From Marsupella aquatica (taxonomy: Eukaryota > Plantae > Marchantiophyta), in the NCBI GenBank assembly GCA_973895155.1, contig OZ316895.1, forward strand, positions 14,700,816 through 14,764,815: DNA of 64,000 nt. The letters run 5' to 3'. The notes below the pieces were generated by a model that was not told the DNA's origin, searched no databases, and was given only the letters and a program-made list of their open reading frames with translations. A program made the translations under genes and the position numbers. Positions 1,111 to 57,100 of this stretch are shown here, one piece after another. Position 1 is the stretch's first letter. The number at the start of each line of letters is the position of its first letter.

Positions 1111-1469
1111 TACTACAGAGTTGATTGGCATACGGATGGCTCACACTTGGGCTACATTCCACTTGATTTGCATGGTGCCCATACACCTATGGCTCACCAC
1201 TGTGTGTTGAAAGTAGTGCACACAGCTACCTATGTCAACCACCCATTGCAGGATTGGATTGAGGAGGATGATGATGAGGTGGCTACTGCACATGCTGCTG
1301 CACATATAGCAGCACTTTCCAGCAACGTGGATCATCAACCAGAGGTGGTACACGGCTCCAAGCAGCCCATGGACCTTTGGTGGCTGCATTGCGCAAATTT
1401 GAGGATCTTGGGCAGCACAATGGCCAACCAATAGCCCCAATCTTGAGCGCACCAGTTACATGGACTCCT

Positions 1470-2440: not shown

Positions 2441-2810
2441 GATGTACATTCATCCAGCATCTGGAGTTCCAACTCTCCCACTCCATGGTGCTGCTACATG
2501 GCATCCGGATCAGGTGCACTTACCTCTATTCAACACTCACCGCTTCAGTCCCAGTGTTGGGGGGGAGGAGGTCCCTTGTAACGTGGCTAGCAGTATTTCT
2601 GAGTTTCATGGTGTGGACCAACTCAAATCAGCAGGTACAACAGGCCTTGGAGAGGCCTCATCACCTTATCAGCAGCATGTTAGCAGCTTGGATAGTGGAG
2701 AGGCTGGCACTTCTGGCTCTTCAAGCATGAGTACATCAGGTCCTATTCCTAGTGTTGCCAACTACACATTCATCATGGGCAACCACCTGAGTAAAAGACA
2801 GAAGGACTAG

Positions 2811-36300: not shown

Positions 36301-38401
36301 AAAGTTATTCTGCAACAACATTCTCTCAGGTAGTACAAGCACTTCACAAATATCATTGCCTTAGAATCAAGGCTATGTGTACAAATGCCCTTGAATGAAA
36401 ATCTGTGTATCCACTTTTCCTATCCGCCAAGCTTGTGAACCTTAATTTGTATTTTCATTGAAGGTTGTGGGCCATTTGTTTTTCCCTTTCCTGTGCCCCA
36501 AACGGCCGACCAAACTGGTCAAAATTACTTAGCTGCCCGTGAAACTAACTAAACTACCAGGCCTGCCCCCATTGGTACATGGGAGGCTTGACCAGACTAG
36601 CCTAACCCAAGATGACACATAATTGGTATGTGGACACATAAAGGCTTGTAACTTGTCCAAGCTAACCCCTTCCAACCATAAATGCGGGGGAAATGCGGGG
36701 AAACAAATGGGCTAGGTTTTGCTTACAGACAATAGCCTGCACCTGTGTCCTGGTGAATGGTGGAGGGGAGCCTGGTCTGCGTGAAGGTACAGTTGCAGGG
36801 GTTAACACAGGTGAACGGCAAGCCTCCATGTGTCCACAAACCAATTGCATGTCATATCAGGTTACTCTAGTCAAGGTAGGCCAATCCACATAAGAGATGG
36901 GCGCAACATGATAGTTAGATTATTTTTGGGCAGATTAATGATTTCAATCAGTTTGGGGGATAGGATAGTAAAAAAACACTATGGGCCATAATCTCCTCAC
37001 CAACTTGGCCAGGGGATTGGTTCACTTTAAGTCTATGTGATAATTTCATAACCCCCTGTTCTCATTTCTGTTGTGTAGCAAAGGTGGAGTTTTGGCCCCT
37101 GATTTGTTCACTTTGGGACCCTGGCTTACCTCCCTCTCCCTCCCGGCATTGTTGCATCCTCCAAAGATCATCATTTACTGATGGGTAGATAGTATTTTAG
37201 TTTCACGGCAAAAAGAAGATGATTAGATGAATACTAGCCTGATTACCAGTTCCTTTCACATAAATAGGGATGTAAAAAATGAACTTTGCAAAAAAAAAGG
37301 ATTCCATGTATTTCCAGTGCATCTTTGCTCCTATCCTTGTTTTGTTGTATGAACCCCCACTGGCAGCCATGCCCTCACTTAGAGTTATGATGTAGAGTTT
37401 TCACTCTAGACAGTAGGCCCATGGAGTAGCTTCCCACTTTCGACCATGCCCTCACTTAGAGTTACAATCGAGAGTATTCACTCTAGAAACTCTAGACAGT
37501 TGGCCCATGGAGTAACTTTGGATTGCGCTATATGAGTTAGATGGCCAAATAATTGCATGAGGGAGAGACTGAGGGAGAGACTAAGGTCTTGATAAGCCAA
37601 AACATGGGTAGCTAAGCATTGGCAAACAAATAACTATTGGATAAAGGAAAGACTAATAAGTTATATAGTTCGTATCACAGGCATAAGCTTTAGTATAGTA
37701 CTATAAAACAGGTCAGTTCAGCAAATAATGCTGCATTGCTGCCTACCCTTGTTTGTCACAACATGGGCAAAAGGGGGGTCAATGGAATCAACTCTTAGGT
37801 ACAGAGTACATCACTATATTCATTAAAACTGAAATTATAAAGGATATAGGGAAATTTGGCGATTTAAAAACATAGTTTTAGGCATGAATATTGTAAATTT
37901 GGAAGATGAAAAATGAAAATTCAAGCATCATTAAATGTAAATTTGGGGACAAAAAAATGAAATTTTGGGAAAGTAAAATATTAAATTGGATGATATTAAA
38001 AAACATTTGGGTGATAAAAGTGTTCATTTGGTTGGAAAATAGATAGAATCTAGTAATAACATATAAGCTTGGATAGCATCTATATTCAAAACATTTAGCT
38101 TGAGTAAGATATCTAACTAAGCACCAATACAATGGAATGACTATAGTGTCTAGACAAAGTTAACTAGGATGATATCCAACCTACTAGAAGGAATGAAATG
38201 GCATCATTTTCTAGAATTAAAATATACTAAGACAAATAAAATAATAATTATAAGAAAGTCCATTCAATAGCTTTGAGAGATCATAGAGTATTAATTTGAT
38301 TGTCTTGTTCTCTCACTTTAGACCAACGCATGGAAATCAACTCGACCCTCTTAATCACAAGTCATTTGAGTGGAGACTTGTAACCTACGAGTTCTATCAA
38401 T

Positions 38402-41400
38402 CTACTCATCAATTATACCTTCCATGTAAATTTTGAGAGTTTTCAAAACATTCTTAGGAATTGTCAAACCTCTATCCATAATATTTTGTTCTTTAGCACC
38501 TGACTTAAACCCATACATTGCAGAATTTGCAAACTGCCAACTTTGAGTAACATTGTCAAACCCAGGATCCAGCTCCCAAGTCTTAGTGGTTTGAAAGCAA
38601 CGTTCATATCGAACATCATCCTTCCATGTTTAGGCCTCCACCATTGTACTTGGAACATAGGAGCATTCCTAAGAGGAATGCTCTCAACAGACGTTGAAGA
38701 AGACCCTTCAATATGTTGCAAATCTGTTGAGGGAACCTCATGGTTTGGATCCACACCACCCAAAGCTCGAACCAACCAGAAACGCCCTTTGCCATTCTCC
38801 TGTTCCCATTCATCCTCTGGACGTAAAAATACAAAGTGACCTTCTTGAATATCTTGTAGAGGAATCCAACGTGCAGGTTCTCGCTCTTGTCGTGCACCAA
38901 CAAAGGGTGCAGCTTGATCTTCCATCTCTTCCATGTACTCATTTTGAAGGTCCATCATCTCTGGATTTTGAGAAGGTTCACTTGACGGCTGAGATGTCCC
39001 CAAAATCATCTTGTAACTTGTGCCATGGTTAGTCTTTGGCCAAAAATCAGTTGTCAATGGCAAATGTCTTTCCTCCTCCCCTTCTATTGTAAGTTCCTCG
39101 GACAGTGCTTGCACAAGATTCTCCCAATATTTGACCAGAGGAAATCTCTCTTTATATGCTGCAGAGGTCTCATCCTTACAACTTTTCTTCAAGAAATCAA
39201 TATAGCGATTAAGGAATGGGATGATTTCTCCAGCCGTCTTTTGTACATCCCCAGATATAGGTTTTGCAAATGGTTGGCCTTCCGGTAAAATGAGCGCATT
39301 TGTGATGGGATCAGTTCTCCAAATGGACCTCCCCATTGCCGGAAGCCAAGGTTGCTTGACATGTGCTTTATATTGATACACTGGCACATTATCCCTCATG
39401 GAGAAAAGAAATGCCACTGGTTTTGAGTGACCTTCTATCTCTTTCACCTGGAAAGTTTTCAAATACTCCTTGTAAGATGCAACCTCTTGAATCAATCGTG
39501 GTACATGATGAATGCTTTCACACTCCCAAACCTCAGCCATCAACCCCAAGAGGGTAGCAACCTCTTTGTATCTGACCTGTTTGGATACTTGAGAAAATAA
39601 TGCATCCACGTCTTCATGGGTGTGGCCAACCATGAGGAATGACATTTGCACAGTTTCAAACACCCCCCTGCTAACAAGCTCAATGCAAAATGCCATCACA
39701 TATTGATTTTTGTTATCTTTCCCTGAATTGTCCATTTGCAACGTTAGGTGCCTTGGTAAGGGCTTGAAAGAGCCCCTAGTAGTCTCAGGATCATCCTTAG
39801 AACCAACATCCACTATGGTTGACTTTTTAGTCTCCTGACCATCTTCAATGCCTTGAAATCGAACAATTGAAACATTTTTGGGTTCCAAGTAACCGGCCAG
39901 AAATGCTTCAAAGTCTAGAAGGGACTGAAATATTGGCCTAGTTGCATTCCAATTCAATCCCTCAAGAAGGTCTCCAGTTTTGTCTCCTGTGTAATCTTCC
40001 AAATCTCGGAGGCATTTGGCCAAAGATGTCACGGTAAAGTCTGCATCTCTAGGCCAAAGTCCAGTCAAACTGAAATGTGCATACACTCCAGGATCTCTTC
40101 CATGGGTTAACATCCCAGTAAGAGCAATAGGCAAAGGCTGACCACTACCAGAGAGGGATTTTGGAGTGGGGACCAACCTGGGGATCCAAGTCTTGGCTTG
40201 ATCCATCTTATCGTGAATAATGCAAAGATAGTTTTGAGGATCCTTCTTTGCAAGAACCCTATGAGCATAGTAAACATATCTTCTTGACATTTGTTCACGA
40301 AGATGTCGCGCTCTTTTCTCTTCAATCTCTGCACGCTCTTTTTTTCTCTTCTCCCGCATCAATTGATCTTTGAACTCAGTGCAAAATGTGCACTTGGCAA
40401 ATGCACTTCCCTTGTGAAAGTCAAAATTATCAAATGAGTTTTTCCAGATGTTGTACATAGTAACTTCAGTAACCTTAGCAAACCCATCTAATTCCATCTT
40501 GGTGAACACCTCTTGGAAAATCTTCTTCTTAGTAAAAGAAGATGGGAGCCGATATTCAATAGTGTCAGTGCCGTTGGACCCACCATAGGGAAGATGTGGC
40601 ATTGGTTCCCCATTTTGGATTAAAATGGACTCCAACAAGGCGCGAGCGTGCAAAGTGCTTGATCGTGTCTTCCGTTGTCCCTGATTTCCATGGAAACCAA
40701 TTGTGCAACCAGCTTCGTATTGATTTTTGTAGTCATAGTACTTTGTTGTATTGAACCCATGCATTTTAATAAATGCATCTTTACAAACCACACGTCCCTT
40801 TAGAACAAAAAATCCCTTTCTCTTGACTTGCTCCTCTCTACACCCAAAGAGACTAAAGATGTGACTTGTTTTGTTGTCACTTGACATTCCATGGTATTCC
40901 CTCCTCATTGCCTCTAAGTCCTCCCTGGGCATGTTCAAGCAACACTTCAGCTTGCAACAACCTTCTCTTTGGATGGAATCAATGGACTCCTCGTTAATTT
41001 TCAAAAGTGCCCTCGACTCCAAATGCCTTTTCTTCCTCTCCTCAAGATCAACTTTTGTCCTCCTAATGAAATTGTATGGTCTTTTTGTAGGTTTACCATC
41101 ACCATCCGAATCCGGATCGCCCTTAGTTCGACCCGACTCCATCCACTTCTCTGAAACTTCCTCAAGGATATCCCCAAGAAACCTTTGAGACGAAATCAAT
41201 AGAAGGGATTTGATTTCCCACCTCACCAAGCCAGGGGTACCAACACGGATATTTGGAAATAATCCGGGTTCATTGATATTCACAACAGCAACACCAACAT
41301 GATCTGCACCAAGAAGTTCATCGTCAACGGCACCTGTTTCAAATGGGACCGTGATAACACCTGTTGCAACCTTTCGACAACGAGAAGCGTCATACAAATC

Positions 41401-42105
41401 AACCTCCTCCGCCATCCAGTTGGAACGTAGTGTAAAATCTTTTAATGGAAGATCATTGAAAATATTTGAACTACCAAACACGCCAAAATCTCAAAGAGTG
41501 CCCTTTCTAGAAACATGCGCAACATCCCAGATAACCCAGGTATGCAAGGCCTCTGCTATTGTATCAGCTCCAGGGTGCGAGTATGACAATTTTTGATTTC
41601 CCTTAACAATATCAGATATTCTTATACTGATGCGACCAACCCCGAGTGTTTCAGTATGACAAATATCCATCGGATTTGTCTTGAAAACAACTCCATTTGC
41701 AACCAACTGATCAAAAATGAACATCTGAACTTCATCCCCTTCCTTGAACACGTCCTCTTCAACCCTTGCATCAATTTTGGATTTATCATTTCCAGCATCT
41801 CCAGCCAAAGAGAAATCATCGACATTGATTCTTCGGTGCTGAGTTGATGACCTCAAGTATGCCAATGCACAATCCCAAATCACGCAGGAGTCAATTGCCT
41901 CAGCCAATGTAGAAAATTTGGGCAAAGGAAATGGAAGTTGACGCGATCCATCAAAACACTTTTCGATCAATACCCCAATTCGATTGTCCCCTAGACAAAT
42001 GTTCTGTATAGTATCCTGGGGGTCAACCTTTTGAACTATCCCAATTGCCGTTTCAAATCCATCAATCACCAATGACACTTCATCCCCTCGTGTAAAATTG
42101 ATCAT
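38402..42105 (-). pseudogene. DD(E/D) transposase (Sola-like/DUF7869-type) with three N-terminal Tnp1/En/Spm-like domains; one in-frame stop and one late frameshift
   Basis: Motifs CIIHDKMDQAK, LQMDNSGKDNKN, FLMVGHTHEDVDALFS and FAKCTFC. ORFs 41491..42105 and 38464..41481 share a frame, separated by one TGA. A shifted frame from ~38620 (RYERCFQTTKTWELDPG...) continues to TAG at 38402. Confidence 0.85.
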
Positions 42106-42232
42106 GATAGCGGACTATCTGTATTCAAATAAAGTTAGAAATTGTTAAGTTCCCCATGTTACAATCATGTTTCAAAATCTGGACTCTCCTCCAAAAAATA
42201 TTGTAAAATCACTCAAAACCCTAAATACATTC

Positions 42233-42560
42233 AAGTCGGGTCGGAATTATTTCGACCCTCCTCCAACATTATGTCTTGAAATGATTGAATTGACTAAACA
42301 TTTACAAGTCGGGTCGGAATTATTTCGACCCTCCTCCAACAATATGTCTTGAAATGATTGAATTGACTAAACATTTACAAGTTGGGTCGGAATTATTTCG
42401 ACCCTCCTCCAACAATATGTCTTAAAATGATTGAATTGACTAAACATTTACAAGTCGGGTCGGAATTATTTCGACCCTCCTCCAACAATATGTCTTAAAA
42501 TGATTTAATTGACTAAACATTGATAAGTTGGGTCGGAATTATTTCGACCCTACTCCAACT
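42233..42560. repeat. 73-bp tandem array (4.5 copies), each unit with palindrome GGGTCGGAATTATTTCGACCC
   Basis: Units start at 42233, 42306, 42379, 42452 and 42525. A degenerate inverted copy lies near 42660-42682. Confidence 0.95.
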
Positions 42561-43722
42561 ATTAAGTTGAAATTATGTCAAAACTATTTGTGAAACTATC
42601 TTGCTTATGCTTTTATATACCAGTTTAAAATGCTAGTTAAGATGACATAGTCAGGTCGGCACGAAATAATTCTGACCCACTTCTAGAAACTATGTTAGTA
42701 ATCACATAAAGGGGTACAGTAAGTTCTACACATGCTAGACTGTGGATAAAGGTCTAGAATGAGTAAAATATATGATCTAGAACCTAATGTGTAAATCTTA
42801 ATCTAGGTTTGGCTTAAAGGTATTGAATTAGATGTAGTTGAGCTAGTACTTCTAAGATAAATAAATAAAATCACTAACCTGCTCCGCAATATATCTCTGT
42901 CCACCCTTGTACAAGCTAAATGGGTACCTTGGATGCCAGCATTGTAACTCTTAGCACCACAGTGCTCACCAGTGCCCTTACTAAACCTTGCATTCAACCA
43001 TGCGGACCTAAACAAGGCACTCGGACAGAGGAGAGTCAGTGATCGTACCAATCACTGTCTAAATGACAATGAACCAAAAAATGGATTGTGGGAGGTCTAT
43101 ACTCAGTTTGAGAGGCAAAAAGCCCACATATTACCCAACACACGAGTGGACACCAACAGATCGGGCACGGGTGGATGAGGCACGCACCCAGCACACAAGT
43201 AGACATCGGATAGGGTGTCAGCCAATCACTCACGAGTGATAGGTGAGTTGCGAGCACACACCGCTGACAGCTCGGAAGTTTAAAATTGGTAGGTGAGTCG
43301 CGAGTGGTCGTGAGTGGTCACACCATCGGTGACTCACGATCACATGCACCGAGGAGGGTCTCCATCATTGGCGCGCATTGATGCCTCCGTACCCTCTCGG
43401 ATCCTTGCCTCCTCGGACTCCTCGCTCGCAGGGGGTATAGGAAGGCAGGCCTTGCGCTTGAGGCCTCATTTCCTTGCCTCCCTCTTGCCTCCTCTCTCGT
43501 CTCCTCACTCCTTGCCTCCCTCTTGCCTCGCTCTAGGGCTTTTGTTTTTGCCTCGCTCTTGGGATTTGTTTTCCGCCTCGCTCTAAGGCTTTTATTTCCA
43601 CCTTGCTCCCTTCCCTTTTGGGTCGCTCCCTCGATCATTGTTTGCCTGTTAGTGCCCTCTTGCAGCCTGTGGCATTCTCCATTGCTGCCACGTGTCATCT
43701 TAAATCTCACTCGCCCCTTACA

Positions 43723-46700
43723 ATGTCTACTTCCTCCAGTTCTGAAGCTTCCACCACCTCCGCCAGTTCTCAAGAGTCATTGAACTTCAATTATAACTCT
43801 CTGTATGAATATGACCCTGAAGACCTGGATGTCCAAAAATTGGTTAACAATGCGTTGGAGGCGTCAAAGAAAGCCCAGTTAACTTTTCCACGTAAGGCAC
43901 CTCCTGCTTCAACTTCTTGCCTCGCCCTAAGGGCGAGGCAACTTTACTTTAATTTGGATTTCAAACTTCTTATTAGGAAAATTTCTATATTCCTTTGCAG
44001 TCGCCTCGCCCCAAGGTCGAGGCGACGTCTACTTCATTCTAGATTTCTTGTTGCTCCGAAGGCGTATTGGACCTTGTATCTTACATTAATAAAGGATCTT
44101 TAGCTATATTCTATTTTTTGCCTAGCTCTTGGGGCGAGGCGATGTCGTCTGCATTCCTCAAATGTAGTTTGCATTCCCAGAAGTTGCCTCGCCCTTGGGG
44201 CGAGGCAATGTCCTCTACATTCCTAAATGTTGTCTGCTTTCCCAGAAGTTGCCTCGCCCTTGGGGCGAGGCGATGTCCTCTGCATTCCTAAATGTTGTCT
44301 GCTTTCCAGAAGTTGCCTCGCCCTTGGGGCGGGGCGATGTTGTCTGCATTCCTAAATGTTGTTTGCTTTCCTAGAAGTTGCCTCGCCCTTGGGGCGAGGC
44401 GATGTCGTCTGCATTCCTAAATAATGTTTGATTGCTTGGATGAGGTGGCAGGGCTAATTGCACTAGGAGCAAAGAAGATTTTGCAATCTTCTATTTGTCG
44501 CCTCGCCCCAAGGGCGAGGCACCTTGAAAGTTTTCCACATGTCAATGTTAAAAATATGATGCTGACCATTTTGTTTTCAATGTTTCTTACCAGGAAAAAA
44601 TCTTGAGAAGCCGGAGTTAAATATTATGGACGAGGATATCAAGGACTTTGTTTTCCCTGACCAAGATACTCTAGGATTTAGATGGGCACTAGAAGTTGGG
44701 GTGTCGGCGGAAGGCAGTCTCTTGATTTGTTTCAAGGGCCTCACAAGTCAATTGAATGACCGCAAGACAATTGTTACTCTAGGTCCAGTCGTCCTTGTGA
44801 ACACGGACAACAACCGCAATGCAACGATTATTGTTGAGTCCAATGAGAAATCTCAGTGGATGAGACTTCTAGTGCCAATAAAACTCTACTCGACTTTACT
44901 GAATGTTGAGTGGATGGCTCGATTGGAGATAAGCGTAGCTGATATGGGATTCTTCCCAGATGGAGTAACAATTGATCAGATGTTTGAGAAGACGCGTTCT
45001 CAAATAAGTGGAGTTGACCTAGTGTTTGGATTTCTCTACGTAAAGAAGCACATGCATGACAATGCGGACAGTGTGGACCCTCCGTCTACTTGGATAGTTC
45101 AAAGGATGATTGATAAGGCACATTTTTCATACGAGCAAGCAATCGACAAGAGTTTCATTTTTTGTCCAGAGTTTCAAGAGGCCGCGTGCCGGACGTGGAT
45201 TTCAGAGATGAAGAAAAAAGAAGCAAAGCATAAGGCAAAGGAGAGAAAGAAGACAGTGGAAAGAAGTGCGCAATCAAAGACAGAGAAGAAACGAAAGCTT
45301 CAAGAGCCGGTTGTTCAACAAGAGAAACAATCTGGGAGTTCACGCCGTAAGAAGATGGCTAAAAAAAATGAAGATGATGAGGGCCCCCAAAAAAAGCAGA
45401 CAAAGAAGGCAAAGGTTGCAAAATCAAAACCAATGTCAGGGTCGACTTCAAACTTTGTCTTGCATCCAAAGGATGATATGTGTCCGACAGAAGGACCCAA
45501 AGAAGATGATGTGCTCAAAGGCCAAGAGGTTTTGCGTAATATTGAGCAGTATTATACTTTTGGCATCCGCGAAGTTTTTGATATTCCTGTAAAAAGTATT
45601 AATCCGCCATCGGCCATTTTTGTATATCGAATGTTCAATCTTTTGCATGCAATGGAGATATCAAAGTCTATGATGAAAAACCCTGGACAGGAACCACAAG
45701 TTGCTGATTTGATTCCGTATCACGAGAGCACTAAACAGTTGCTTCATTATGACAACACACCTCAGGATAGGAAAGAGTTTTTGATTGGTGTGAAGAAGCA
45801 TGAGATCCAATTCCTTGCCATCAGTGGCCAGCATTCTGCAAGAGCTGCCCAATGGATCCAAGGGTGGGCCGAGACTAACGCCAAGCTGACAGATCTTGCC
45901 AACAAACTAAAGTATAGGAAAGCAAGGATCCTATCTGACCTCACTCCGAAGACAATTTTGGTTGAACATTCAAGTTTATCGAATGCTGTCAATGATACTA
46001 TGCAATTTAAGTCTTGTTTTTTAGAGACTATTGTTCATGCACGAAGGCAGTTTGAGGAGTGCGGGAAACCGCCGCGTCCAGGGATTGGGACCAATCAAAA
46101 TACAGACAGGAAAAACTATCAGGTACATGTTGGAGCAACGCAAACTATTCTTGATCCGCTTTGTTTAAAGATTGTCAATGGTAGAGGTTTGCCTTGCCCC
46201 AAGGGCGAGGCTGCCTTTTCTTGTTTTCCTTGGTTAGAAGATTAAAGCAAATGTTTGCCTCGCCCTCAGGGCGAGGCAACCTAGACTAGTCTCTCTAAGA
46301 ATAATTCCCTAGTTCCGTTTCAGTCAATTGCGGTTAGATGTAGAGGTTCGCCACGCCCTTGGGGCGAGGCGGCTTAGCCTGTTTCAAACATAGGTATAAA
46401 TTTTCTAACATATGCATTGTACCCTGAAACTAATGTCAAGTCCATTGGATATGCAGGATTGGTTTGCCCTGGCAAAGGTTACAATGGGGAAGTCAAGCCT
46501 AAAGAGCATTTATTGGTTACTTTTTGCCGAAGATGAGCTCTTTGAATTATGGCGGAACGTGTGTGCAAAATGGTTGAGTGGGAAGCTCCAAGACGGGGCT
46601 GGTGGGTATGGAGGGCCAAGACCCCCAAAATTGATCACTCCCGGTACCTTTCGATGCTTTGAAGGAGAGATTAGTAGCAAACAGATAATTGAGATCTTGA

Positions 46701-48654
46701 AGGACGTTGAAGAGGAGCGTGTCTTGCTGAAGAAGGATATCACCAACAAATCAGAGCTTGTCGCAATGGGAGACTTGGCCCTTACAATCAAGATAATGTC
46801 CAAATTGAGAACAGCCATTATTGGCTATTTCGTGGAAAAGTATCGTGAGAAGTTTCCTGTTGGCACATCTTGGGAGTCTCTGGTGATATTGTTGCCTTCC
46901 TTGAAATCTGAGCTTGAGATGACAAAATTGAGGAGAGCAGCGGGTGAGGTTTACCTCAACAATTCATTGAAGAAGAATGTGGTCAAGGAGAGTTTCCCAC
47001 AAAGTCTGATGGTCAGACTAGATGGGTTGTATTGTAAAGAATTTGGTGGGATTGGTCGTTCTCGCACGGAGCCTTTCTTGACATTTTTTAGTGAGAATTT
47101 GATGAAGACGACCGTGCCGGAAATGCTACAAGAGCCTTCGCCTTTGTGTCCTCTTGCCATTGTTGACTTCAGTAGGCTCCGACAACATGTTTGGACCGAT
47201 GCTGAAATTATTGCATTACTACAATACATTGTGGATCTTCCAAGAAATCCAACAATTGTTGTTGTCATGACTATGCATCCGGGGCCACTTGCTGCAAACA
47301 TTTTGAGTGCCCTTAGGAAATTGCAACATGAAAAGGGAATGGACATCCACGTCGACTATGGGAGCTATCGACAGAGTGATACACCAGTTCCAGAGGGCTT
47401 ACTTTTCAGTTGTGGTATGGAGGAGATAATCTTTGCAGGAATCACCACTGAGGAGAAATTTGATTGGAAGCAAGTGTTCAGGCCTGGATTTAATTGCCAA
47501 TTTTCTTACAATTCGGCGATCGACCCTGATTTCCAAGTGGAAGACAAGACGGAGAAGCGAGATAAGAATAAGAGTAAGACAAGTAAGGAGACAGTGACTG
47601 CGTCAACTTCGGCATTTCACATTGGAGATTTCTTACGAAAGGCTCCCATGTTTGAGATGGTGGGAAGTAGAGGTGGCTTTGTGAATATTCACGCTAAGCC
47701 AAAATGTATGCTGCAGAGTATTATTGAATTTTTTTCGGCTGAAGGGGAGACTATACTTGACTTTTTCTCGGGAAGACAGGTTATGAAGGTGTCATTGTTG
47801 TGTTTCAGAGAATGCTTTGCGTATTCAGACACTGAGGATGAATATGATTTCACTCAGGCATATGGAAGGGTTCTCTGCGAGAAAGTTCCTTCCATAATGA
47901 GTGACCGGATGGGCGGTTCCAAATTTGGTAGAGCCCGCGATGGGGTTTCCGCGCATGTTGGTGCCAAAGAAGGCGTAGACCAGGGCGAAGATGATATTGA
48001 GGAAGGAGAATTGGGTCACGACACAGACGACAGGGTCACCCGAAATTTGGATGAACGTGGAACACAAGTGGTAGGTATTCCCTACTTTGGTGTGGGGTTG
48101 GCTGATGTTGTGGGTCGACCTGAGGGCGACCCACCAAGAAATCCCTTTGCCGGTGTAGAGAATTGGATGCACCAATCGGACCCAGATCTTACATCGTCCA
48201 CATCGGACGCACATTGGAAGGCAACCGCAGATGGTCTAGGCAATATTGACGTAGTAGAATTGGGAGAAATGTCAGACATTGCGCTTGCAAAGGAGGATGA
48301 TCGTCAAGTACCTGAGACCGTTGCAAATGAAGAAGAGAAGGCAGGTGCTTCAAATCCTCCCGTCTCCTCTATATTGCTCATCAGAGACTAAATTGGTTTT
48401 TACAAGTGCTTCTACAGGAAGCCCCGTAGTATTATCATTTTCACAAAATTCTGGATCTGAGATCGGCAGGACTGGATATATGAAAACAGTCCGTCCTGCA
48501 ACTCATTTTATATGGAGAAATGGACCAAAGGTTGGAATGATAGAATCACTAGACGATGCTCCAAAGATAATGGCAAAATCAGATTACAAAAAACTGAACT
48601 TGAGACTGAGCCCAGTTTTTGCACCCCCATCCTTTGAAGAGCAACTTCCCAGTG
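43723..48654 (+). CDS. Spliced transposon cargo gene: unknown N-terminal domain, K-rich segment, ParB/Srx-like domain, N4/N6 DNA methyltransferase-like domain
   Basis: Frame-compatible GT-AG introns 43892-44593 (phase 1), 46123-46456 (phase 0) and 48345-48417 (phase 1) join the ORFs. ParB-like FDIPVKSI...YR...FLAISGQHSARAA. MTase-like HAKPKCMLQSIIEFFSAEGETILDFFSG...ECFAYSD. The 3' end is uncertain. Confidence 0.72.
43917..44522. repeat. Intronic array of 21-bp palindromes GCCTCGCCCTTGGGGCGAGGC (~65-bp tandem unit in the core)
   Basis: Copies at ~43919, 44003, 44120, 44186, 44251, 44315, 44380 and 44500. Three more at ~46191, 46257 and 46350 in intron 2. Confidence 0.93.
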
Positions 48655-49088
48655 GTATCAATTCCGGGATACAGAGTGTTCTAGGTGATCAAACAATAGA
48701 TGAATTTGGGCATTTTAGCATTGGAAATTATTAGCCCATTCTTTGGTTCTTGGTATTTTAATGACAATCTAAGCTTTATCTTTGTAATAATATACTTTTT
48801 TACAGACCAAAGTTCCGTCGTAGAATCTCCTTCCTCAAAGGATTTTGTTGGCATTCCCTCGGAAAGCGTTGCTGTGGAGGAAGGGTTTGACCCAAGTATA
48901 CTTTGGATCTAAAAAATGGCAATTGAATGTAATTAATGTTTTTCTAGGAGGGTCGCCCCAGGGTCGTTCCTCTCTACTTCAAATGCTATAACAAAGTTTG
49001 TTTGATTTCAAATTTTGAGAGTTTTCCTCTGTAGTAATTGTTTAAACTTTGAGTCGCATTGACTAAGGGCTTATGTTAATGTTTCCAG

Positions 49089-50128
49089 AATTCACTCCAA
49101 TACTACACTCTCCGATCCGGCGAAAGCTCTTGGTTCTTGACCTTAACAAGATTTGTTGGGATTGCATTAAGACCAGAAGCTCAGGACCATGGCGAAATCA
49201 GACAAGTTTACGTGGTGTGCACTGGGGGAGACGTGGAGGGTTTAATTTCATGTATGTGGAGCGCCCATACCTCCACGAATTTCTATATGCAGCTTTCATG
49301 GTTTTTGACGTCGCAATTTGGACCTGTGCAAGGAGGCCAAAAACAATGGACTTAATGGAGTTGATTTTCACTAAGGAGGAGCGATAGAAGTTCAAGTTTG
49401 TCTTTACTCAAGAAGATACCTTTGATAGTTGCATCCAAAGGCCAGATATAACAGATGGGAAGGCCAATTTACTTCTGAAGAATTTGCAAACCATTTGGGA
49501 CCGTTTTCCAGAAAAATATGATGCTTCTAATACAGTTCTTATTGATGATTCTCCATTGAAGGCATTTTTGAATTATGACATGAATGGATTGTTTCCAAAT
49601 CCATTTACTCACACAGCTTCAAATGACACTTTTTTGCCCGAGATATTATGGCCGTATCTTTGCAAATTGAGAAAGGCTTACTGCGTTCAACATTATATCA
49701 CTGTCAACAATCCAAAGTGGTCTGTTTTCAATTTATTAACAAGCAAGGAGGATCATGCTGCCATCTATGCTCTTTTGGAACAGAAGTGGGGAGATTGTCG
49801 TTGTATCCATAGGGAGTTTGGAACCATCTTGGATGTGACTCCTGAAGAGATTCCTTGGGACGGAAAGAACGAGGTGCAGCATTACCCACCACTGGAGACG
49901 TGGACCACGGATGAGATCGAAGAAACTGCAAACGTAATACTTGGAGACAACTATTCTGGTCCTCATACACAAAATAGAAGGTATTTTATTTGGAAAGTTC
50001 TCAGAACTAGGGATCTCACCAATAAGTTTAAGAACCACCATGCGAGAGATACTTGCAACCGTGACATCCGCTATGATAAATCAGGAAGCAGACTTTCTTG
50101 TTCAAATGAGTTTTGTCTTGATCATTAG
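49089..50128 (+). pseudogene. FCP1/NIF-type HAD phosphatase-like domain with Cys/His-rich tail; one in-frame stop (49385)
   Basis: RKLLVLDLNK, ERPYLHEFL, FDVAIWTCA, LLKNLQTIW, NTVLIDDSPLKAFLN. ORFs 49073 and 49484 share a frame. Confidence 0.8.
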
Positions 50129-51174
50129 GAGATAGGGTTGCTCTAGTGCCTACCCTGAATTGTACATTCATATTATGTCTTGAAAGGATATGTTTTGAAC
50201 ATGTAGGATAAAGTAAATAATTAGGATATATGCTTAGTGTGAGGCTCTCTCACTGGACTGGATAATTTAATAATTATATAGTGGATCAATCTCATTTTGA
50301 CCCTTGATTTATGACCATCTATATTTTTTAATTTATAGATGGTCTGAGTGGTATTGGCCTCTGATTTTTGGACTAAATTAAATTACTCTAATTTTCAAAT
50401 TAATTAGAATATATGATTTAAGTTATTATTAAACATTTGGGTGAAAAAAAACAAAATTTTGGGCATTCAAAAGTGTATATTTGGGCTGAAAAAATTAGCT
50501 TTTGGGAATGCTTTAATAGAAATTTGGCCTGAACAAAAATAACTTTAGGGTTCATCTTATGGACTTTTAAAAGTACAGTTTTAATGAATATAGTGATGTA
50601 CACAGAATCAGGAAAAGTGTGTGAATGTTTAAGGGTTTCTATAGCATTTATTGCATGTAGAGGCAACTTGACATCACCTACAGTCTACCGTGTATATGTG
50701 CAGCGTGTATAACTGCATTTCATGGGTAACTGTAGGGTGGTCATGTAATCCCTCAATAATACAGCATTTGTTTTTGTAAATGCACCAAAAAATGCATGGT
50801 CTGTAGGGCATTTTCCATCTATAAGAGTACATATGCATTAATCCATATGTTAGAAGCATTTATTGACAAGTGCAGCAGATAACTACACATTGTAGTTTCA
50901 TGCACTTATCCAGTTGGATTTGCACTACGGGGATTATGGATATGAGAAGTCGATGCACATGACCTGACGAGACATTTGTGAAATGCATGAGCGATTTCTT
51001 AGGCACATATTGGAAAGTGCAACATGCACTTATGAAGAAGTGCATAACGTGGATAACTGCAGGCTTGGGGTGTCTTCCTGGGAGTCTACACTTAGACATG
51101 GTAGGCTGTATTTACCCTTCCTGGCATATGGGAGACTCTATACATTGCAAAGGTCTAATGTCAAGGGTGCATGA

Positions 51175-54100
51175 TGTGGGGAGAAATCAGATCAGGAAAA
51201 ACACTCCAAACATACACGTGCTCAATAGTTACGTGGTTCGCCTCAAGGTTGGCTACGTCCACGGGAAGACCAAACTTTATTAACGGTTATGTGTCTACTC
51301 AAGCATCACCATAGCTCTCATCTCTTCAAGCTCTCCTCTCTTGCTATATCCCTGGTTCTCTCTTGAGAACTCTCTTGTTTGTTCTCACACCACATAGAAG
51401 TTGAAGAGATAAGGACCAACCCTTCAACTAGGGTTTACTCTAACCCTAGTTAACATACTAACCATAGTTCAACCCAAGACTGAGTTAACCTCTACAAACT
51501 CCCCCTTGACTCACGTCTTGGGAGGGTTCATAGCATTGTCTTTTCCTTACAAGTTCCTCCGCGGGACGTTCAAGACAGTAGGGCCAAAAGACCCTCCCCC
51601 TAATGCAAGGGTTAACTAGAACTAAGCCGTAGCCGATAAGCCATCGGATGGAGTACTCATATAAAGACATTTTCTTGGTTAACTCTATATTTACAATATT
51701 TGTAAATAATTACAATGCCTTGAAAAACTATTGGAGTCTAATACTTTGGTAAAAGCATCCGCTGGATTAAGCTTTCCATCAATCTTGACAAGCTCAAATT
51801 CATCATCCGATAATGCCTGTCGGATGAAATGATAGCGGACATCAATGTGCTTTACCCTGCCATCCATCACTTGATTCTTGGTAGTGTAAATTGCACTTTG
51901 ACTGTCACAATGAAGATATACACACTCCTGTGATAAACCCATCTCTGTGACAAGATTTTTCAACCAAATGGTCTCTGATGCTGCTTCTGCTGCTGCTACA
52001 TACTCGGCATCCATAGTAGACTTTGCAACACACTTTTGGAGAGTAGACTTCCAACTAATGCATCCACCAGCAAGTGTAAATACATATCCAGTTGTCGATC
52101 TCCTCTTATCCAGATCACCTGCGTAGTCTGCATCCACATAACCTTGAAGCACTTTCATATTGTTTGAACTTGCATCAAACAATAAACCCTTCTTAGTGGA
52201 GCCTCTGATGTAGCGCAAAATCTATTTCACTGCTTCCCAATGAACTTTTCCTGGATTTGCCATGTATCTGCTTACCTTGCTAATGGCATAAGCTATGTCT
52301 GGTCGGGTGCATACCATGAGATACATTAAACTACCCACAACACTTTCATAAGGAACTTTGGACATCAAACTTTTTTCTGTCGCATCTAATGGACAAAATG
52401 CTGCAGAAATATTGAAATGCCTTGCCAAAGGAACACTCACAGCCTTAGCATCTGCCATGTTGAATTTTGAGAGTACCTTCTCTGCATATCTTTTCTACGT
52501 CAGCCAAAGTTTGGCTTTGTTAACATCCCTGACAATCTCCATGCCTAGGATCCTCTTGGCTGTGCCCAAATCCTTCATCTTAAACTCAGAACTGAGTTGG
52601 GCCTTAAGCTTATCAACTTCGCCCCTATCCTGTGCTACAATGAGCATGTCATCCACATAAAGTACAAGGATGACAAGCTTAAAACATGTGTTGTTCACAC
52701 GCCTTATGTAAACACATGGATCGTACACGCTTCGCACAAATCCAAGCGATTTCAAAAATTCATCAAAACGCTTGTTCCACTGCCTTGGGCTCTGCTTTAA
52801 TCCATACAAGGATTTTAGCAACCTACATACCAAATTTTCCTTGCCCTTTTGCACAAAACCCTCTGGTTGCCTCATGTAAATCACCTCATCCAACGATCTA
52901 TATAAGAATGTCGTGACAACATCCATTTGATCTAAAACCAGATCAAATAAAACTACAAGAGCACATAGCAAACGTATTGTTGAATACTTTGCTACGGGTG
53001 AAAAAACCTCATTGTAGTCTATACCTTTCTGTTGAGTAAAACCCTTGGCTACCAACCGAGCCTTAAATATCTTCTCAGCATCCTCCGTGGGTCCATCTTT
53101 CTTCCTATACACCCACTTGTTGTCAACAGCCTGCTTATCACTGGGTAGACTTGTGAGTTCCCAAGTCTTGTTATCATGAAGTGATTTCATTTCCATGCGC
53201 ATCGCCGCCTGCCACTGTTGCTTCTCCATAGAAGCTAGGACCTCTCGAAATGAGGATGGATCTCCATCTTCTGTCACCAATGCATCAATAGATTCTTCAT
53301 CCAAATCCACTTGATCAGATTGAAGCCAAGTTCCATACCTTTCCCGGGCTTGACGTTTGCGAGTTCCTCTTCGCACTGAAGACTCTGGCTGATTTGATTG
53401 TACTGTGCTTTGCCTTACAGTGGTGTCAACATATTCATTATCTGACACATCCTTTCCCCTTATATCCTCTAGAGGAGGAGATTGCTCTTTGTTAGTAGTA
53501 GGGAATTGATCTATCTCCCCTTCCTTCAATGATTTTTCTTCATTGAAGGATACATCCTGACTAACAAGTAACTTGCAATCAGCTGGATCCCACAACCGAT
53601 AACCTTTAACTTCACGCTGATAACCAAGAAAAATGCATTTCTAGGCTCTAGGATCTAGCTTAGTCCTATTGTTGCTAGGAACATGTGCATATGCTTCACA
53701 GCCAAAAACCCTAAGCTTTGAATAATCAGCAGGTCGATTGTGCCATAGCTCAAAGAGGGTTTTGTAAGTAATTGCCCGACTAGGAGAGAGATTTACTAGA
53801 TAAGCAGCTATGTTGACAGCTTCCACCCAAAAGATTTGTGGCAATTTAGAGTGGCTCAACATGCTCCTTGCTCGCTCCAACAATGTGCGGTTGAGTGCTC
53901 AGCAACACCATTTTGCTCAGGAGTGTACACAGTTGTGAGATGGTGAGTAATTCCCTTATTTGCACAATACGTGTTGAACTCGCCAGAGGTGTATTCACCA
54001 CCATTATCTGATCGTAGATATCTCACATTCTTTGCAGTCTGTGTCTCAACTTGAGCTACCCATTGTTTAAAGATGGAAAGCACTTCAAACTTATGGGCAA

Positions 54101-57100
54101 TGAAATAAATCCAAACAAACCTTGAGTAATCATCGATAAATGATACATAGTATTGTTTGCCTGAATGTGAGGAAACCGGAGCAGGACCCCACACATCGGA
54201 ATGAATATACTCAAGTACAACTTTAGAATGATGAATGGCAGTCGGAAATGGAGTTCTTGTTTTCTTGCCAACAATGCAATGATCACAAAAACTCAACTTG
54301 TATGCTTGCAATCCTGGTAGGAGATGTCGCTTGTGTAAGATTTCCAAACTTTTTTCACTCATGTGACCAAGCCGAGCATGCCATAAATTGATTTTCTCCT
54401 CCTGAGATGTGACCAAATTGACTTCGGCAAGAAGTGTGGTGCCTTCCAAGACATAGATATTTCTTTTCCTCTTGCCAATAAGAACTTCAGTTGATCCATG
54501 CGTGACTGTTAACACCCCATCAGTTGCACTCCATTGATAACCCTTCGCATCCAAGTAGCCAAGAGAAATCAAATTCTTACACATTTCTGGAATGTGTCTA
54601 ACATTTGATAGAGTACAGTACTTGTCACCGGGTAGTTGAATCTTTACGGATCCAATCCCTAAAACTTTGCAAGAATGATTATTTCTCATCAAAACAGATC
54701 CATGGATAGGAGTGTAGGATGAGAAAAGTTCACGCATATAGCACATGTGATACGAGCAAGCGGAATCCAAGATCCATTGACAATCCTCAACTTGGGAAGT
54801 GGTACACAATGAAAATCCTTCACTATCCTCTTCTCGAACAACTACTTGGGCTGAAGAACCGACAACTTCCTTGAATGTGTCTTTGACGCGAAAATCCTTC
54901 TTCATGTGGCCCACTTTGTCACACTTCCAACACTTTATCTCACGAGTAGACTTGGATGGTGATTTGGATCAAGATCTAGATCTGGATCTAAACCTCCTCC
55001 TACCAAAAGATCGATCGTGGAACCTTCCTCGCTCCATGGGAAGTGGGTTAAACCTTTTGTTTTCATGAGATGGCTCCCTTGATTTACCTCTTTCTACCAA
55101 CAGTGTTGTTGATGATGAGGTTGAGGTAGGATGAGTTGAAGAGACCAGCTTAGACTGCATGTCATCGGTCAACTGGGCACTCACCACATCATTGTAGGAT
55201 ATAGTTATCTTATCACGGAATAGAAGAACTCGAGACAAAGATTGGTACGAAGGTGGTAGTGAGCTCAAGAGTTGTAAGGCTTTCTTTTCTTCGCTCAAAT
55301 GCTCCCCCAAATTCTCTAGGTCAACCACAAGATCATTGAACTGATCGACATGATCTTGAATCTTAACTCCATCAGCCATTTTGAATTGCATGAGCTTCAG
55401 GCTTGCATACATTCGGTTTGACATCTCCTTCTTGTAGTACTTGTTGCGCAATGCTTGAAACAAGTCCATCACCGTTTGTGTTGCTTTTTCCTCGAACTGC
55501 TTCTTCACATTGTTTTTCAGGTACATGCCAATAATACTTACCGCTTGATCCTGGAGATCATGCCAATCATCATCTTCCATCTCCTTGGGTTGAGATCTTA
55601 GTACCTTGCCTAGGCCCATCGCCCTAAGTGCATCCCTCACGTTACGTTCCCACATTGTATAATCCATCCGACCATCAAATTTTTCCACCTCAAACCTTTG
55701 ACCTCCAATCCTAGTAGTCGCCATCACTGGAATACCAAATGTAGTGTGGAGTCGCCTTCCGATAAGAAATAAACATCGAATGCTCAGATGTGGGGTGTGA
55801 AAATAAGACCAAAAATGAAAGTTGGTGAATTTTGAAACTGATCACTCCTATGTGTAGCCCACAAGGTAACGCTCCAAATTCTGAAAACGGTTTGTCAAAT
55901 GGACTCTCGAGTGCCGAGAATTTTTACTCCGACCGGAGGGGGTAAAAGATGAAATAATTACCCCTTGAGGGAATCTCTTATGCCAAAGATTCCACTAGTA
56001 TAATTTTTCAGAATTGAACGCACCAATATTTGCCTAGCTTCCCCAAGTATGCCTCTCCAAAAGTTGAAGTTGATCCGATTTTATTTGCCGCTCGGAATTT
56101 TTGACCTTCGATAAAAATTTAAGCCTCTGGAAAAAGAATCTTTTCGGGAAATTCCGTCCGCCCTTGTACAGCCCCTGTGGGAGATTTCACAGGGGGCACT
56201 TCCCCCTGCCCGAGCCCTGTCGAGCCCTAAAAGGCCTCCTCGAAGTTTTTGACCTCCTCGTGCGTCCGCGGAAGTCGCAACTACTCACGGCAGAAAGTAC
56301 CCCTCGGTGGATTCACTCAAATTCCCATCTCAGTTTTTGACAAAATCCAATTCTGATTTCAGATTCAGAAACTAGACTTCGAGGGCATCAAGATTGATAT
56401 AAAGAACTCACAAACGGTGGAGTAATGAGGGAGAAACAATTCGGTGAAAGTGACTGATATTAAGTTATCCGCCATAGCCAAAATTTCGAGCTCAAAAAAC
56501 GAGAATTGAAATTAAGATTGCTTCTCAACCGTTTCACGGAATTCAACGATGTTGATATCGAAACGTCTAGAAAGACAAGGCGCTCAAGCGTATCTCAGTT
56601 TCAAGTCCCGATAGAACAATCAAAAAGACTGATCTGAGAAATTGACCTTATCTCTTGCCCGATAACGTAAATTGAAAACCGTCACTTACAATTATTTCCG
56701 TTTCTGACCTCAGGCCTTCATTGCTTCACTGAAATGAGCCCCTGGTTGTGTGCTCCACACTTGTGAGAAGATTGAGTCCGATCTTCTTTCAATAGCTCCG
56801 CTTCGAAGAGGAAATCATTCGCTGTTCGCTTTGCTTGAAGAAAATTCTATGGAGTTCCTAATCGACTGAAAAAACCTGAGCTCTGATACCAATTGTGGGG
56901 AGAAATCAGATCAGGAAAAACACTCCAAACATACACGTGCTCAATAGTTACGTGGTTCGCCTCAAGGTTGGCTACGTCCACGGGAAGACCAAGCTTTATT
57001 AACGGTTATGTGTCTACTCAAGCATCACCATAGCTCTCATCTCTTCAAGCTCTCCTCTCTTGCTATATCCCTGGTTCTCTCTTGAGAACTCTCTTGTTTG

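Follow-up and report, generated by a model that had tools for sequence, protein, structure and literature searches.

A DNA transposon of the liverwort Marsupella aquatica carries a gene in which a ParB-like part is joined to a part resembling N4C/N6A DNA methyltransferases, and the question is whether this gene still methylates DNA or serves the element in another way. We analysed it in a window of 64,000 nucleotides (contig OZ316895.1, positions 14,700,816 to 14,764,815), following an earlier note made from the letters of this stretch.

The transposon and its accessory genes

The element and its transposase are placed as follows, with all positions given as those of the window.

37806..50601 (12,796 bp): whole DNA transposon, with the transposase on the minus strand and two accessory genes on the plus strand
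37806..37841, plus strand: left terminal inverted repeat of the pair
50566..50601, minus strand: right terminal inverted repeat of the pair, with loose contig ends nearby
38464..42114, minus strand: transposase gene, whose single frame (1008 + 207 codons) is interrupted by an in-frame TGA at 41491-41493

The terminal inverted repeats are 36 nt each with a complementarity of 92%, and ACAGA is present in both flanks of the element. Contigs of other copies part company after 50597 in sequencing run X1 (3 contigs, agreement 0.51) and after 50594 in run X5; therefore, the real ends may be 37810 and 50597, with a 4-bp GTAC duplication. The transposase matches PF25273 (DUF7869, E 1.9e-43), and its match to TNP1/En/Spm is weak (E 0.098) and under the cut-off. 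The ESM Atlas clusters found for it, a lead only, are all DUF7869 with scores of 0.84. Diverged copies of the element are numerous in the four sequencing runs (X1, X2, X3 and X5). Taken together, the inverted repeats, the flanking duplication, the transposase and the diverged copies bear out the proposal of the earlier note that the gene is carried by a DNA transposon. The gene (44594-48734) is encoded on the strand opposite to the transposase, and a degenerate FCP1/NIF-like gene follows downstream of it.

43723..43891, plus strand: candidate exon 1, with ATG at 43723 and donor C/GTAAGG
44594..46122, plus strand: exon 2, with its first in-frame ATG at 44626, supported by the open frame, 14 relatives, alignment, model and structure searches
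46123..46456, plus strand: intron 2, GT..AG, phase 0 and frame-preserving, holding three palindromes
46457..48734, plus strand: exon 3, stop at 48732-48734, frame broken by a 2-nt deletion behind 48361
49073..50128, plus strand: second accessory gene, with an FCP1/NIF-like HAD-phosphatase fold, interrupted by a TAG at 49385-49387

The plus strand has open frames at 44566-46245 (559 aa) and 46409-48391 (660 aa), and the two are parts of a single gene. Two relatives, P0170 and P0002, bridge the junction 46122/46457. P0170 is a single 1009-aa open reading frame with both the ParB-like and the methyltransferase-like parts; in the alignment, its residues 64-257 correspond to 45532-46107 and its residues 261-727 to 46457-47875, and P0002 reads across intron 2 in the same way. 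In the Riccia protein P0137, a ParB-like part (hhalign probability 96.4, E 1.1e-9) is followed by a methyltransferase-like part. Thus, the two parts are indeed fused in one gene, as had been proposed from the letters. The gene has 226 relatives at E<=1e-3. Of the relatives found, every named one is from a liverwort, and long open frames with shared motifs are present in relatives of 20-50% identity from two classes of liverworts.

Of the three introns proposed earlier, intron 2 stands on the two bridging relatives, and intron 1 (43892-44593) is a candidate only: it has plausible GT/AG signs and keeps the frame, exon 1 is covered by no relative among those aligned, and several relatives begin near the in-frame ATG at 44626. 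The third intron, near 48360, is rejected. The frame change there is a private 2-nt deletion, and other copies carry CT behind 48361 (depth 549.8 of 549.8 in X1, 3797.6 of 7024.5 in X2, 19224.3 of 37097.7 in X3 and 20.7 of 20.7 in X5). No intron-skipping joints were found in the four sequencing runs, which are not on record as RNA. The gene end had been placed at 48654, and it is moved to the stop at 48732-48734, to which the conserved C-terminal domain continues. The positions given for the motifs hold: ISGQHSARAA at 45820-45849, LAIVDFSR at 47153-47176, HAKP beginning at 47690, and, within FSGRQ, the Arg codon at 47774-47776. That arginine had been read as a degenerate motif I; position 47774 is G at full depth in the four runs, the A (Gly to Arg) is private to the window copy, and FSGGQ is what other copies and relatives show.

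The second accessory gene scores 29.7 and 28.6 bits against PF03031 (NIF; cut-off 21.8), and all four runs have C instead of T at 49385 (CAG instead of TAG). DxDxT is the catalytic motif of FCP1/SCP phosphatases, and its place, which we take to be DLNKI in the window copy, reads DVEGL in the Riccia protein P0140. In 3 of the 36 relatives scanned, the methyltransferase-like part is followed by NIF within one fused protein. The window copy is mutationally decayed: the 2-nt deletion, the Gly to Arg change in motif I, and the stop codon in the NIF gene are all private to it.

The methyltransferase-like part

The second part of the gene lies in exon 3, with the following features.

46457-47056, plus strand: helical domain
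About 47063-47905, plus strand: predicted methyltransferase fold
47153..47176, plus strand: LAIVDFSR, strand beta-4 and the loop where motif IV (DPPY) is expected
47681..47782, plus strand: motif X to motif I, VNIHAKPK ... ILDFFSGRQV, the PF01555 match
48372-48719, plus strand: conserved C-terminal domain, preceded by an acidic linker

With the exon-3 model (pLDDT 85.7, pTM 0.79), Foldseek returned 100 matches at E<=1e-3, led by CcrM (2.4e-8) and M.PvuII (1.2e-7). In the VIA search, the first 20 rows consist entirely of beta-class and type III Mod methyltransferases (Z 17.6-14.2), which align to model residues 203-483 over 181-229 residues with an identity of 6-17% to every solved enzyme. N6A and N4C enzymes are mixed among the structural matches, with neither preferred and N6A at least as good; rotifer N4CMT is found there too (Z 15.4), and a phage protein that bears the name ParB/Sulfiredoxin aligns with the model at E 4e-8 over 494 columns. 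By its model, the second part has a beta-class N6A/N4C amino-methyltransferase fold, as the earlier note had supposed.

The window matches PF01555 (N6_N4_Mtase) with E 0.0092 and 16.4 bits and misses the gathering cut-off of 26.7, which is reached by 1 of 6 and 2 of 36 relatives (3 of the 42 scanned). At E<=0.01, 6 of 6 and 16 of 36 relatives match, solely at profile positions 92-217. The family profile matches residues 224-267 of M.RsrI (E 5.4e-6), the motif order IV ... X-I is kept, and the lysine of motif X and the second glycine of FFSGG are found in 63 of 66 and 57 of 68 relatives, respectively.

Prokaryotic beta-class enzymes retain (D/N/S)PPY at motif IV. In the exon-3 model, strand 233-237 and the loop after it fall on LAIVDFSR, and DFSR is put at motif IV on the basis of model topology and aligned ranges. 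The column holds Asp in 57 of 62 sequences, followed by Phe in 33, Leu in 23 and Pro in 0 of 62, and the place reads D-[F/L]-[T/S/A]-[R/H] across the family instead of (D/N/S)PPY. The pattern [DNSTE]PP[YFWHL] was found at this place in none of 125 sequences, its sole occurrence being elsewhere at an unrelated place. Thus, the PPY catalytic loop has been lost family-wide with motif I (FFSGG) retained, and the missing DPPY/SPPY first seen in the window copy is a property of the whole family. The loss of PPY is no proof of lost catalysis. The Arg/His of D-[F/L]-x-[R/H] is conserved, as is the Asp, and judged by their conservation these residues would suit a binding site and a new active site equally well. 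SAM binding by the fold is uncertain because the acidic position that follows strand beta-2 is weakly conserved (D in just 16 of 62).

An active DNA N4C or N6A methyltransferase, targeted to the transposon by the ParB-like domain as proposed for algal proteins, would be in line with the complete beta-class fold (Z up to 17.6), with the conserved motifs X (63 of 66) and I (57 of 68), and with the strongly kept Asp at the end of beta-4; the authors of the algal cases suggest self-modification in the accessible parts of their papers (PMC12477816; bioRxiv 10.1101/2025.02.11.637652). On the other hand, the Asp is followed by proline in 0 of 62 sequences, the PPY pattern is absent from motif IV in all 125, PF01555 scores 16.4 against a cut-off of 26.7 that only 3 of 42 relatives reach, and the functional relatives named in papers keep the loop (TSPPY in MpDN4MT1, according to the accessible text). 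We consider an active methyltransferase of this kind unlikely.

The ParB-like part and the palindromes

The first part of the gene and the palindromes around it are arranged as follows.

About 44623-45075, plus strand, exon 2: predicted PH/PTB-like beta-sandwich
Plus strand, exon 2: Lys-rich disordered linker between the PH/PTB-like and ParB/Srx domains
About 45499-46008, plus strand, exon 2: ParB/Srx-fold domain in the AlphaFold model
45820..45849, plus strand: ISGQHSARAA, with SGQHS at the place of the GERR / DGQHR box
43919..44520: eight 21-bp palindromes GCCTCGCCC-N3-GGGCGAGGC, partly in 64-65-bp tandem units
46191-46211, 46257-46277 and 46350-46370: three further palindromes inside intron 2

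The AlphaFold model of ORF1 has a pLDDT of about 85-90 across residues 320-470. In the VIA wide search, the ParB/Srx superfamily takes the top 8 of 8 matches (Z 8.8-5.1; 84-104 residues aligned, spanning model residues 312-481): KorB (8.8), PadC (8.5), free serine kinase (7.2), the N-terminal domain of pNOB8 ParB (6.8), plant sulfiredoxin (6.3), SbnI (6.2), Atu1540 (5.6) and human sulfiredoxin (5.1). Foldseek gave no match at E<=1e-3 for this model; Noc, ParB, sulfiredoxin and PadC fill its first ten rows, with a best E of 2.2e-3. At the sequence level, none of 11 family members matches Pfam ParB_N (PF02195) at E<=1, one of 11 matches DndB (PF14072) at E 0.052, and the family profile of this part found no ParB among PDB sequences. 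The structure searches indicate that the modelled first part has a ParB/Srx fold, in agreement with the earlier suggestion. Helices come after this fold in the ORF1 and exon-3 models; no helix-turn-helix match was isolated from these models, in which the helical domain was folded together with its neighbours.

The GERR box of ParB has two arginines and binds CTP. We take SGQHS to be the equivalent of this box and of DGQHR in DndB, by pattern and model; on this presumed correspondence, the arginine pair is replaced by residues (S420, G421, Q422, H423 and S424) that are invariant in 11 of 11 aligned sequences.

A search of the 64 kb for the palindrome with up to 3 mismatches gave 11 matches against 0 expected, and all 11 lie at 43919-44520 or 46191-46370, only beside or inside the ParB-methyltransferase-like gene. 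Half-site matches are concentrated likewise, with 25 of 32 at 43525-46370. The array at 43919-44520 is inside candidate intron 1, or just 5' of the open frame if the start is 44626. In some copies, most of it is missing (joint 44138>44491, one contig each of X1 and X3). The palindromes could serve the transposase or transcription, or could be a functionless repeat.

The earlier note had raised a reader or shield on a sliding clamp. If the ParB-like domain were a CTP-dependent clamp, loaded at the palindromes and spreading from there, it would be in the company of the CTP-bound clamps KorB, ParB and Noc among its best structural matches, and the palindrome arrays resemble parS, OB and NBS sites. 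However, the family has the invariant SGQHS where ParB has the GERR arginines, and sulfiredoxin, SbnI and free serine kinase match equally well, which points to a common fold only. A sliding clamp is therefore not supported, and we consider it quite improbable.

Self-recognition and comparison with known systems

A captured, functionless gene fragment riding in the element would explain a window copy broken at three or more places (at least 3), but other copies are open at these places, the long frames and motifs persist in relatives of 20-50% identity from two liverwort classes, and the models are confident, so that we give this explanation very little credence. It is even less probable that the host 4mC writers MpDN4MT1 (Marchantia) and N4CMT (rotifers) have a relative or reservoir in this gene, which shares with them the Pfam family by fold, a liverwort setting in the case of Marchantia and a structural match to rotifer N4CMT (Z 15.4), since MpDN4MT1 has TSPPY and no extra domains in the accessible text, N6A enzymes match no worse than N4C, and identity to every solved enzyme is 6-17%.

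We hold it somewhat probable that the gene is a decayed accessory-gene copy of a 12.8-kb DNA transposon, with a ParB/Srx fold and a PPY-less methyltransferase fold, whose product likely binds the element's own 21-bp palindromes and would act there without canonical N4C/N6A methylation. The gene likely serves self-DNA recognition by the element. The ParB-like part, perhaps with the following helical domain, would read the palindromes, by analogy with KorB, ParB and Noc, which have palindromic sites of their own, and with the proposal for red-algal PAG3. The methyltransferase fold may have been retained to bind SAM or a base, or for altered chemistry, and the module may aid self-marking of the element or its escape from silencing. 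A bolder version, which we put forward only tentatively and consider unlikely as a whole, is a land-plant transposon self-recognition module in which the ParB-like reader sits on the 21-bp palindromes, the rebuilt loop D-[F/L]-x-[R/H] would carry out a non-canonical DNA reaction or read a modified or flipped base, and a pseudo-CTD-phosphatase partner would connect the complex with RNA polymerase II, for self-marking or silencing escape.

VANC of the Arabidopsis VANDAL transposons is an anti-silencing protein reported to bind short tandemly repeated motifs in its own element, and its binding and the hypomethylation have been demonstrated experimentally. It is a functional analogy only: the proteins are unrelated, and the Marsupella gene is known from sequence and models. 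The ParB-methyltransferase fusions of phages and plasmids, together with CcrM, M.RsrI, M.PvuII and MboIIA, share the permuted fold and the domain order from ParB to methyltransferase, whereas the Marsupella family has D-[F/L]-x-[R/H], introns, the Lys-rich linker and extra eukaryote-only domains.

MpDN4MT1 of Marchantia and N4CMT of bdelloid rotifers are eukaryotic 4mC writers of bacterial origin, and on this the earlier note agrees with the accessible parts of the papers. Like the Marsupella gene, MpDN4MT1a/b and N4CMT are eukaryotic with a PF01555-type fold and a bacterial origin, and MpDN4MT1a/b is from a liverwort. However, as far as the accessible text describes them, they are host genes with proven catalysis, TSPPY and no ParB domain, whereas the Marsupella gene is transposon-borne and its catalytic loop is missing.

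The closest precedents are algal, and the earlier note was unaware that they are published. In the accessible text, red-algal Plavaka elements carry PAG2 (PF01555+SET) and PAG3 (ParB-like+2OG oxygenase), tandem inverted-repeat arrays adjoin PAG3, and the accessory genes recur across transposon superfamilies (Petroll et al. 2025, bioRxiv 10.1101/2025.02.11.637652). There, as here, both prokaryote-type domains ride giant DNA transposons with inverted-repeat arrays beside the ParB-like gene; the algal domains are in separate proteins with SET and 2OG oxygenase, whereas the Marsupella gene fuses both and adds a PH-like domain and a NIF-like neighbour. In the brown alga Ectocarpus, Sola1-1_Ec32 has a gene for a 1104-aa ParB-like and DNA-methyltransferase protein, which lies opposite the transposase (Dinatale et al. 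2025, PMC12477816). Compared by its description in the accessible text, it is likewise one large protein (about 1260-1325 aa in Marsupella) with ParB-like and N4C/N6A-type domains, encoded opposite the transposase strand in a giant DNA transposon; unlike it, the Marsupella gene is from a land plant with a DUF7869 transposase, belongs to a family without the PPY loop throughout, and has a NIF-like gene downstream. Thus, on the parts of these papers that are accessible, transposon-borne ParB and PF01555 genes with adjoining inverted-repeat arrays have already been described in brown and red algae, and the Marsupella gene is therefore a variant of them, new in its land-plant host, its remodelled catalytic loop, and its NIF partner.

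Gene model and copies of the accessory gene

The transposon-borne fusion of a ParB-like and a methyltransferase-like half is a real finding; its gene model needs correction, and its novelty is below what the earlier note had assumed. The open frames on which the model rests are:

44566-46245, + strand, long open frame (559 aa)
46409-48391, + strand, long open frame (660 aa)
48258-48734, + strand, third open frame, overlapping the end of 46409-48391

The motifs ISGQHSARAA (45820-45849), LAIVDFSR (47153-47176), HAKP (from 47690) and FSGRQ (Arg codon at 47774) were all found where the earlier note had placed them. Three introns had also been proposed, and one of them stood: a GT..AG intron of phase 0 at 46123-46456, linking the two long frames. 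P0170, a related protein encoded by a single 1009-aa ORF, corresponds to 45532-46107 with its residues 64-257 and to 46457-47875 with its residues 261-727, and the Calypogeia fissa protein P0002 also spans the junction 46122/46457. The junction is supported by these two relatives at the level of sequence. The upstream exon 43723-43891 (donor C/GTAAGG; acceptor at 44593) is compatible with the frame. Because coverage of this exon was not found in any relative, and because several relatives start near the in-frame ATG at 44626, we regard exon 1, and the intron behind it, as a candidate only.

To compare the window copy with other copies of the element, six public sequencing runs were found, none of them listed as RNA, and contigs from four (X1, X2, X3 and X5) were placed on 43500-50700. 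The contigs behaved as DNA, with the introns covered and the joints 43891/44594 and 46122/46457 absent. Many diverged copies are present in the four runs; among the 5076 contigs of X3, 1976 matched at 99% or above, 2065 at 95-99% and 1035 at 90-95%. The window copy has three private lesions. The first is a 2-nt deletion behind 48361, where CT is present in other copies (at full depth in X1 and X5, at about half in X2 and X3). The supposed third intron is therefore this deletion, and with CT restored the frame is open from 46457 through to the stop codon 48732-48734. The second is the change of a Gly in motif I to Arg. All four runs have G at position 47774, so that the motif reads FFSGG, and the degenerate motif I that had been read as FSGRQ is therefore a feature of the window copy and not of the family. 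The third is a TAG at 49385-49387 in the neighbouring NIF-like gene, where position 49385 is C in the four runs (CAG). Among the 40 best-supported differences listed, out of 309 in the span 43500-50700, the window shows a C>T or G>A change at 26, and 20 of these 26 lie in CG or CHG context, a pattern that fits what is expected of deamination in a methylated, silenced copy. The decay concerns the window copy, not the family as a whole.

The C-terminal domain at 48372-48719 (+), about 116 aa long and ending in ..IDEFG, is conserved and common to the close relatives P0001 and P0002; a family match for this domain was not found.

The ParB-like and methyltransferase-like folds

ORF1 was modelled together with 10 relatives, and the model had a pLDDT of 64.8 overall and of about 85-90 over residues 320-470. 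The eight top-ranked structures in VIA, a structure search independent of Foldseek, were KorB (Z 8.8), PadC (8.5), free serine kinase (7.2), pNOB8 ParB-N (6.8), Arabidopsis sulfiredoxin (6.3), SbnI (6.2), Atu1540 (5.6) and human sulfiredoxin (5.1). All eight are in the ParB/sulfiredoxin superfamily, to which free serine kinase, SbnI and Atu1540 also belong. The first ten rows of Foldseek were Noc, ParB, sulfiredoxin and PadC, all with E-values of at least 1e-3. Searches of the PDB with ORF1 (phmmer) and with the profile of the ParB part, and of Pfam with ORF1 and its 10 relatives, gave nothing useful. The ParB-like domain is invisible to sequence methods and is assigned by its predicted structure. 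Residues 20-170 of ORF1 showed a weak likeness (Z up to 4.9) to a PH/PTB-type sandwich, for which we claim no family.

At the ParB box of the ParB-like domain, SGQHS is invariant. The corresponding box is GERR in ParB and DGQHR in DndB-type proteins. With SGQHS in place of GERR, the box speaks against a canonical CTP clamp.

In ESM Atlas, fungal DUF3723 clusters were nearest to 44626-46122 (+), with 16 of 30 matches and a score of 0.91, and phage ParB_N clusters matched the ParB-like half at 0.87 and 0.86; the recognition value for ORF1 was 1851, under the mark of 2300, and we treat these matches as leads only. Starship elements of fungi carry DUF3723 as an accessory gene.

The model of exon 3, built with 124 relatives, had a pLDDT of 85.7 and a pTM of 0.79, and its residues 203-483 resemble beta-class amino-methyltransferases. 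Foldseek gave 100 matches at E-values up to 1e-3, among them CcrM (2.4e-8) and M.PvuII (1.2e-7). In VIA, the Z scores were 17.6 for CcrM, 16.2 for M.BceJIV, 16.0 for M.RsrI, 15.9 for MboIIA, 15.4 for the rotifer N4CMT and 15.3 for M.PvuII, and only about 11 for the MT-A70 group. The family profile matched residues 224-267 of M.RsrI (E 5.4e-6), and phmmer of the exon-3 ORF against the PDB gave nothing useful. Pfam PF01555 scored 16.4 bits in the window, under its cut-off of 26.7, and matched 6 of 6 close and 16 of 36 distant relatives, always with the C-terminal half of the profile. Thus the earlier assignment of both folds was right, as judged from the models by VIA and Foldseek. Absence of either fold, or transcripts that do not join the frames, had been named as grounds for rejecting the fusion; neither ground refutes it, and the structure searches recovered both folds.

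By the aligned ranges, the LAIVD strand (model residues 233-237) and the loop that follows it occupy the place of beta-4/DPPY. At this motif IV place the family has D in 57 of 62 sequences, then F or L in 56 of 62 (proline in none of the 62), T/S/A, and R or H in 41 of 62. A search of 125 sequences for [DNSTE]PP[YFWHL] found none at the motif IV place and a sole occurrence elsewhere. Motif I (FFSGG) and motif X (K in 63 of 66) are well conserved. Read from the sequences, the PPY catalytic loop appears to have been swapped for another conserved motif and not to have decayed, and such a conserved replacement argues for a methyltransferase-like fold with a retained but altered function.

The element, its palindromes and its neighbourhood

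The element is bounded by inverted repeats of 36 nt at 37806-37841 and 50566-50601, which are 92% complementary, and ACAGA is found on both of its flanks. Because contigs of other copies diverge past 50597, the ends may be 37810 and 50597, with GTAC duplicated. Annotated features of the element and its surroundings are:

523-5351, + strand, Ty3/gypsy-type retrotransposon (ORF translations only)
31933-33369, + strand, NAD-dependent epimerase, apparent host gene (PF01370, E 1.7e-52)
38464-42114, - strand, transposase frame of 1008+207 codons (PF25273 DUF7869, E 1.9e-43)
49073-50128, + strand, FCP1/NIF-like gene downstream of the accessory gene (PF03031 above cut-off)
51691-55841, - strand, Ty1/copia-type retrotransposon (ORF translations only)
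61959-63224, - strand, leucine-rich-repeat protein, apparent host gene (LRR_4, E 1.2e-38)

The two retrotransposons flank the region of the element. An in-frame TGA at 41491-41493 splits the transposase frame of the window copy, and repeated units resembling TNP1/En/Spm were seen in the N-terminal part of the frame, a weak match (E 0.098). ESM Atlas returned DUF7869 clusters only (0.84), a lead only, and no mention of DUF7869 was found in the literature searched. A 4-bp duplication and the opposite-strand layout are reminiscent of Sola1, and the CACTA-like letters of the terminal inverted repeats and the weak TNP1 match are reminiscent of En/Spm. At the DxDxT place, the NIF-like gene has DLNKI in the window, against DVEGL in a relative from Riccia. 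Three gene models of Riccia sorocarpa place the NIF domain behind the methyltransferase-like part in one protein, which may be a real fusion or the product of merged gene models.

The 64-kb window holds 11 copies of a 21-bp palindrome, GCCTCGCCC-N3-GGGCGAGGC, where 0 would be expected. Eight copies lie at 43919-44520, just upstream of the gene or in intron 1, and three in intron 2; 25 of the 32 half-site matches fall at 43525-46370, and none is near the ends of the element. We infer that the element would recognise itself through its palindromes, without canonical methylation. The arrays and the protein offer a concrete, testable DNA-protein pair, and if the element does recognise or modify its own DNA, this would be a second type of transposon self-targeting system beside VANC.

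Other repeats were seen in the same region: four to five tandem 73-bp repeats at 42195-42559, in the divergent stretch that separates transposase and accessory gene, and a short repeat of GCCTCGCTC units with a 25-bp period at 43525-43608. One contig each of X1 and X3 has lost most of the palindrome array, the 352 bases at 44138-44491 being replaced by 37 other letters.

Relatives and comparison with known systems

A profile search found 226 proteins at E-values up to 1e-3. Riccia sorocarpa accounts for 13 of the 20 relatives looked up by identity, and Calypogeia fissa for five further named relatives; among those with a species name, a minority, none is from outside liverworts. The Riccia protein P0137 has a ParB-like part (hhalign probability 96.4%) followed by a methyltransferase-like part, so distant members, at about 20% identity, have the fusion in common. 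A 'longer' homologue search for fused forms gave nothing useful, which is weak evidence, and a metagenome contig scan with A2, the alignment of ParB-half relatives, gave 93 pattern matches, of which 0 were confirmed.

The discovery of ParB and DNA-methyltransferase genes on transposons of brown, red and green algae is very recent, and no such gene has yet been tested. With many copies across several runs, and with both Riccia (Marchantiopsida) and Calypogeia (Jungermanniopsida) among the genera of its relatives, the liverwort family would carry the range of this module into land plants. It also offers a natural variant in which the SAM-loop motif is conserved and the PPY loop is exchanged for another conserved motif, and it cautions against tallying PF01555-like genes of liverwort genomes as 4mC writers.

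The background given earlier on MpDN4MT1 (TSPPY, sperm 4mC) and N4CMT agrees with the papers; these are host genes that have the catalytic motif and lack a ParB domain. Clades of eukaryotic N6A-methyltransferases linked to ParB have been listed, and none listed there is in liverworts (Iyer et al. 2016); among the papers that a literature search returned, none joins ParB-like genes, liverworts and transposable elements. The closest counterparts are algal. One report describes the 21.5-kb Ectocarpus element Sola1-1_Ec32, in which a 1104-aa ParB-like and DNA-methyltransferase protein is encoded opposite the transposase (Dinatale et al. 2025, PMC12477816). Another reports that Plavaka elements of red algae carry PAG2 (PF01555+SET) and PAG3 (ParB-like+2OG oxygenase), that inverted repeats in tandem arrays adjoin PAG3, and that PAG2/PAG3 genes are also present on Zisupton, Mutator and Fanzor-encoding elements (Petroll et al. 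2025, bioRxiv 10.1101/2025.02.11.637652). The liverwort gene is a land-plant variant of the kind just described in algae, distinguished by its fused architecture, the catalytic loop rebuilt across the family, the SGQHS box, the NIF-like partner and the palindromes in and beside the gene. By analogy, the accessory gene probably works like, and belongs with, the algal class of transposon accessory genes.
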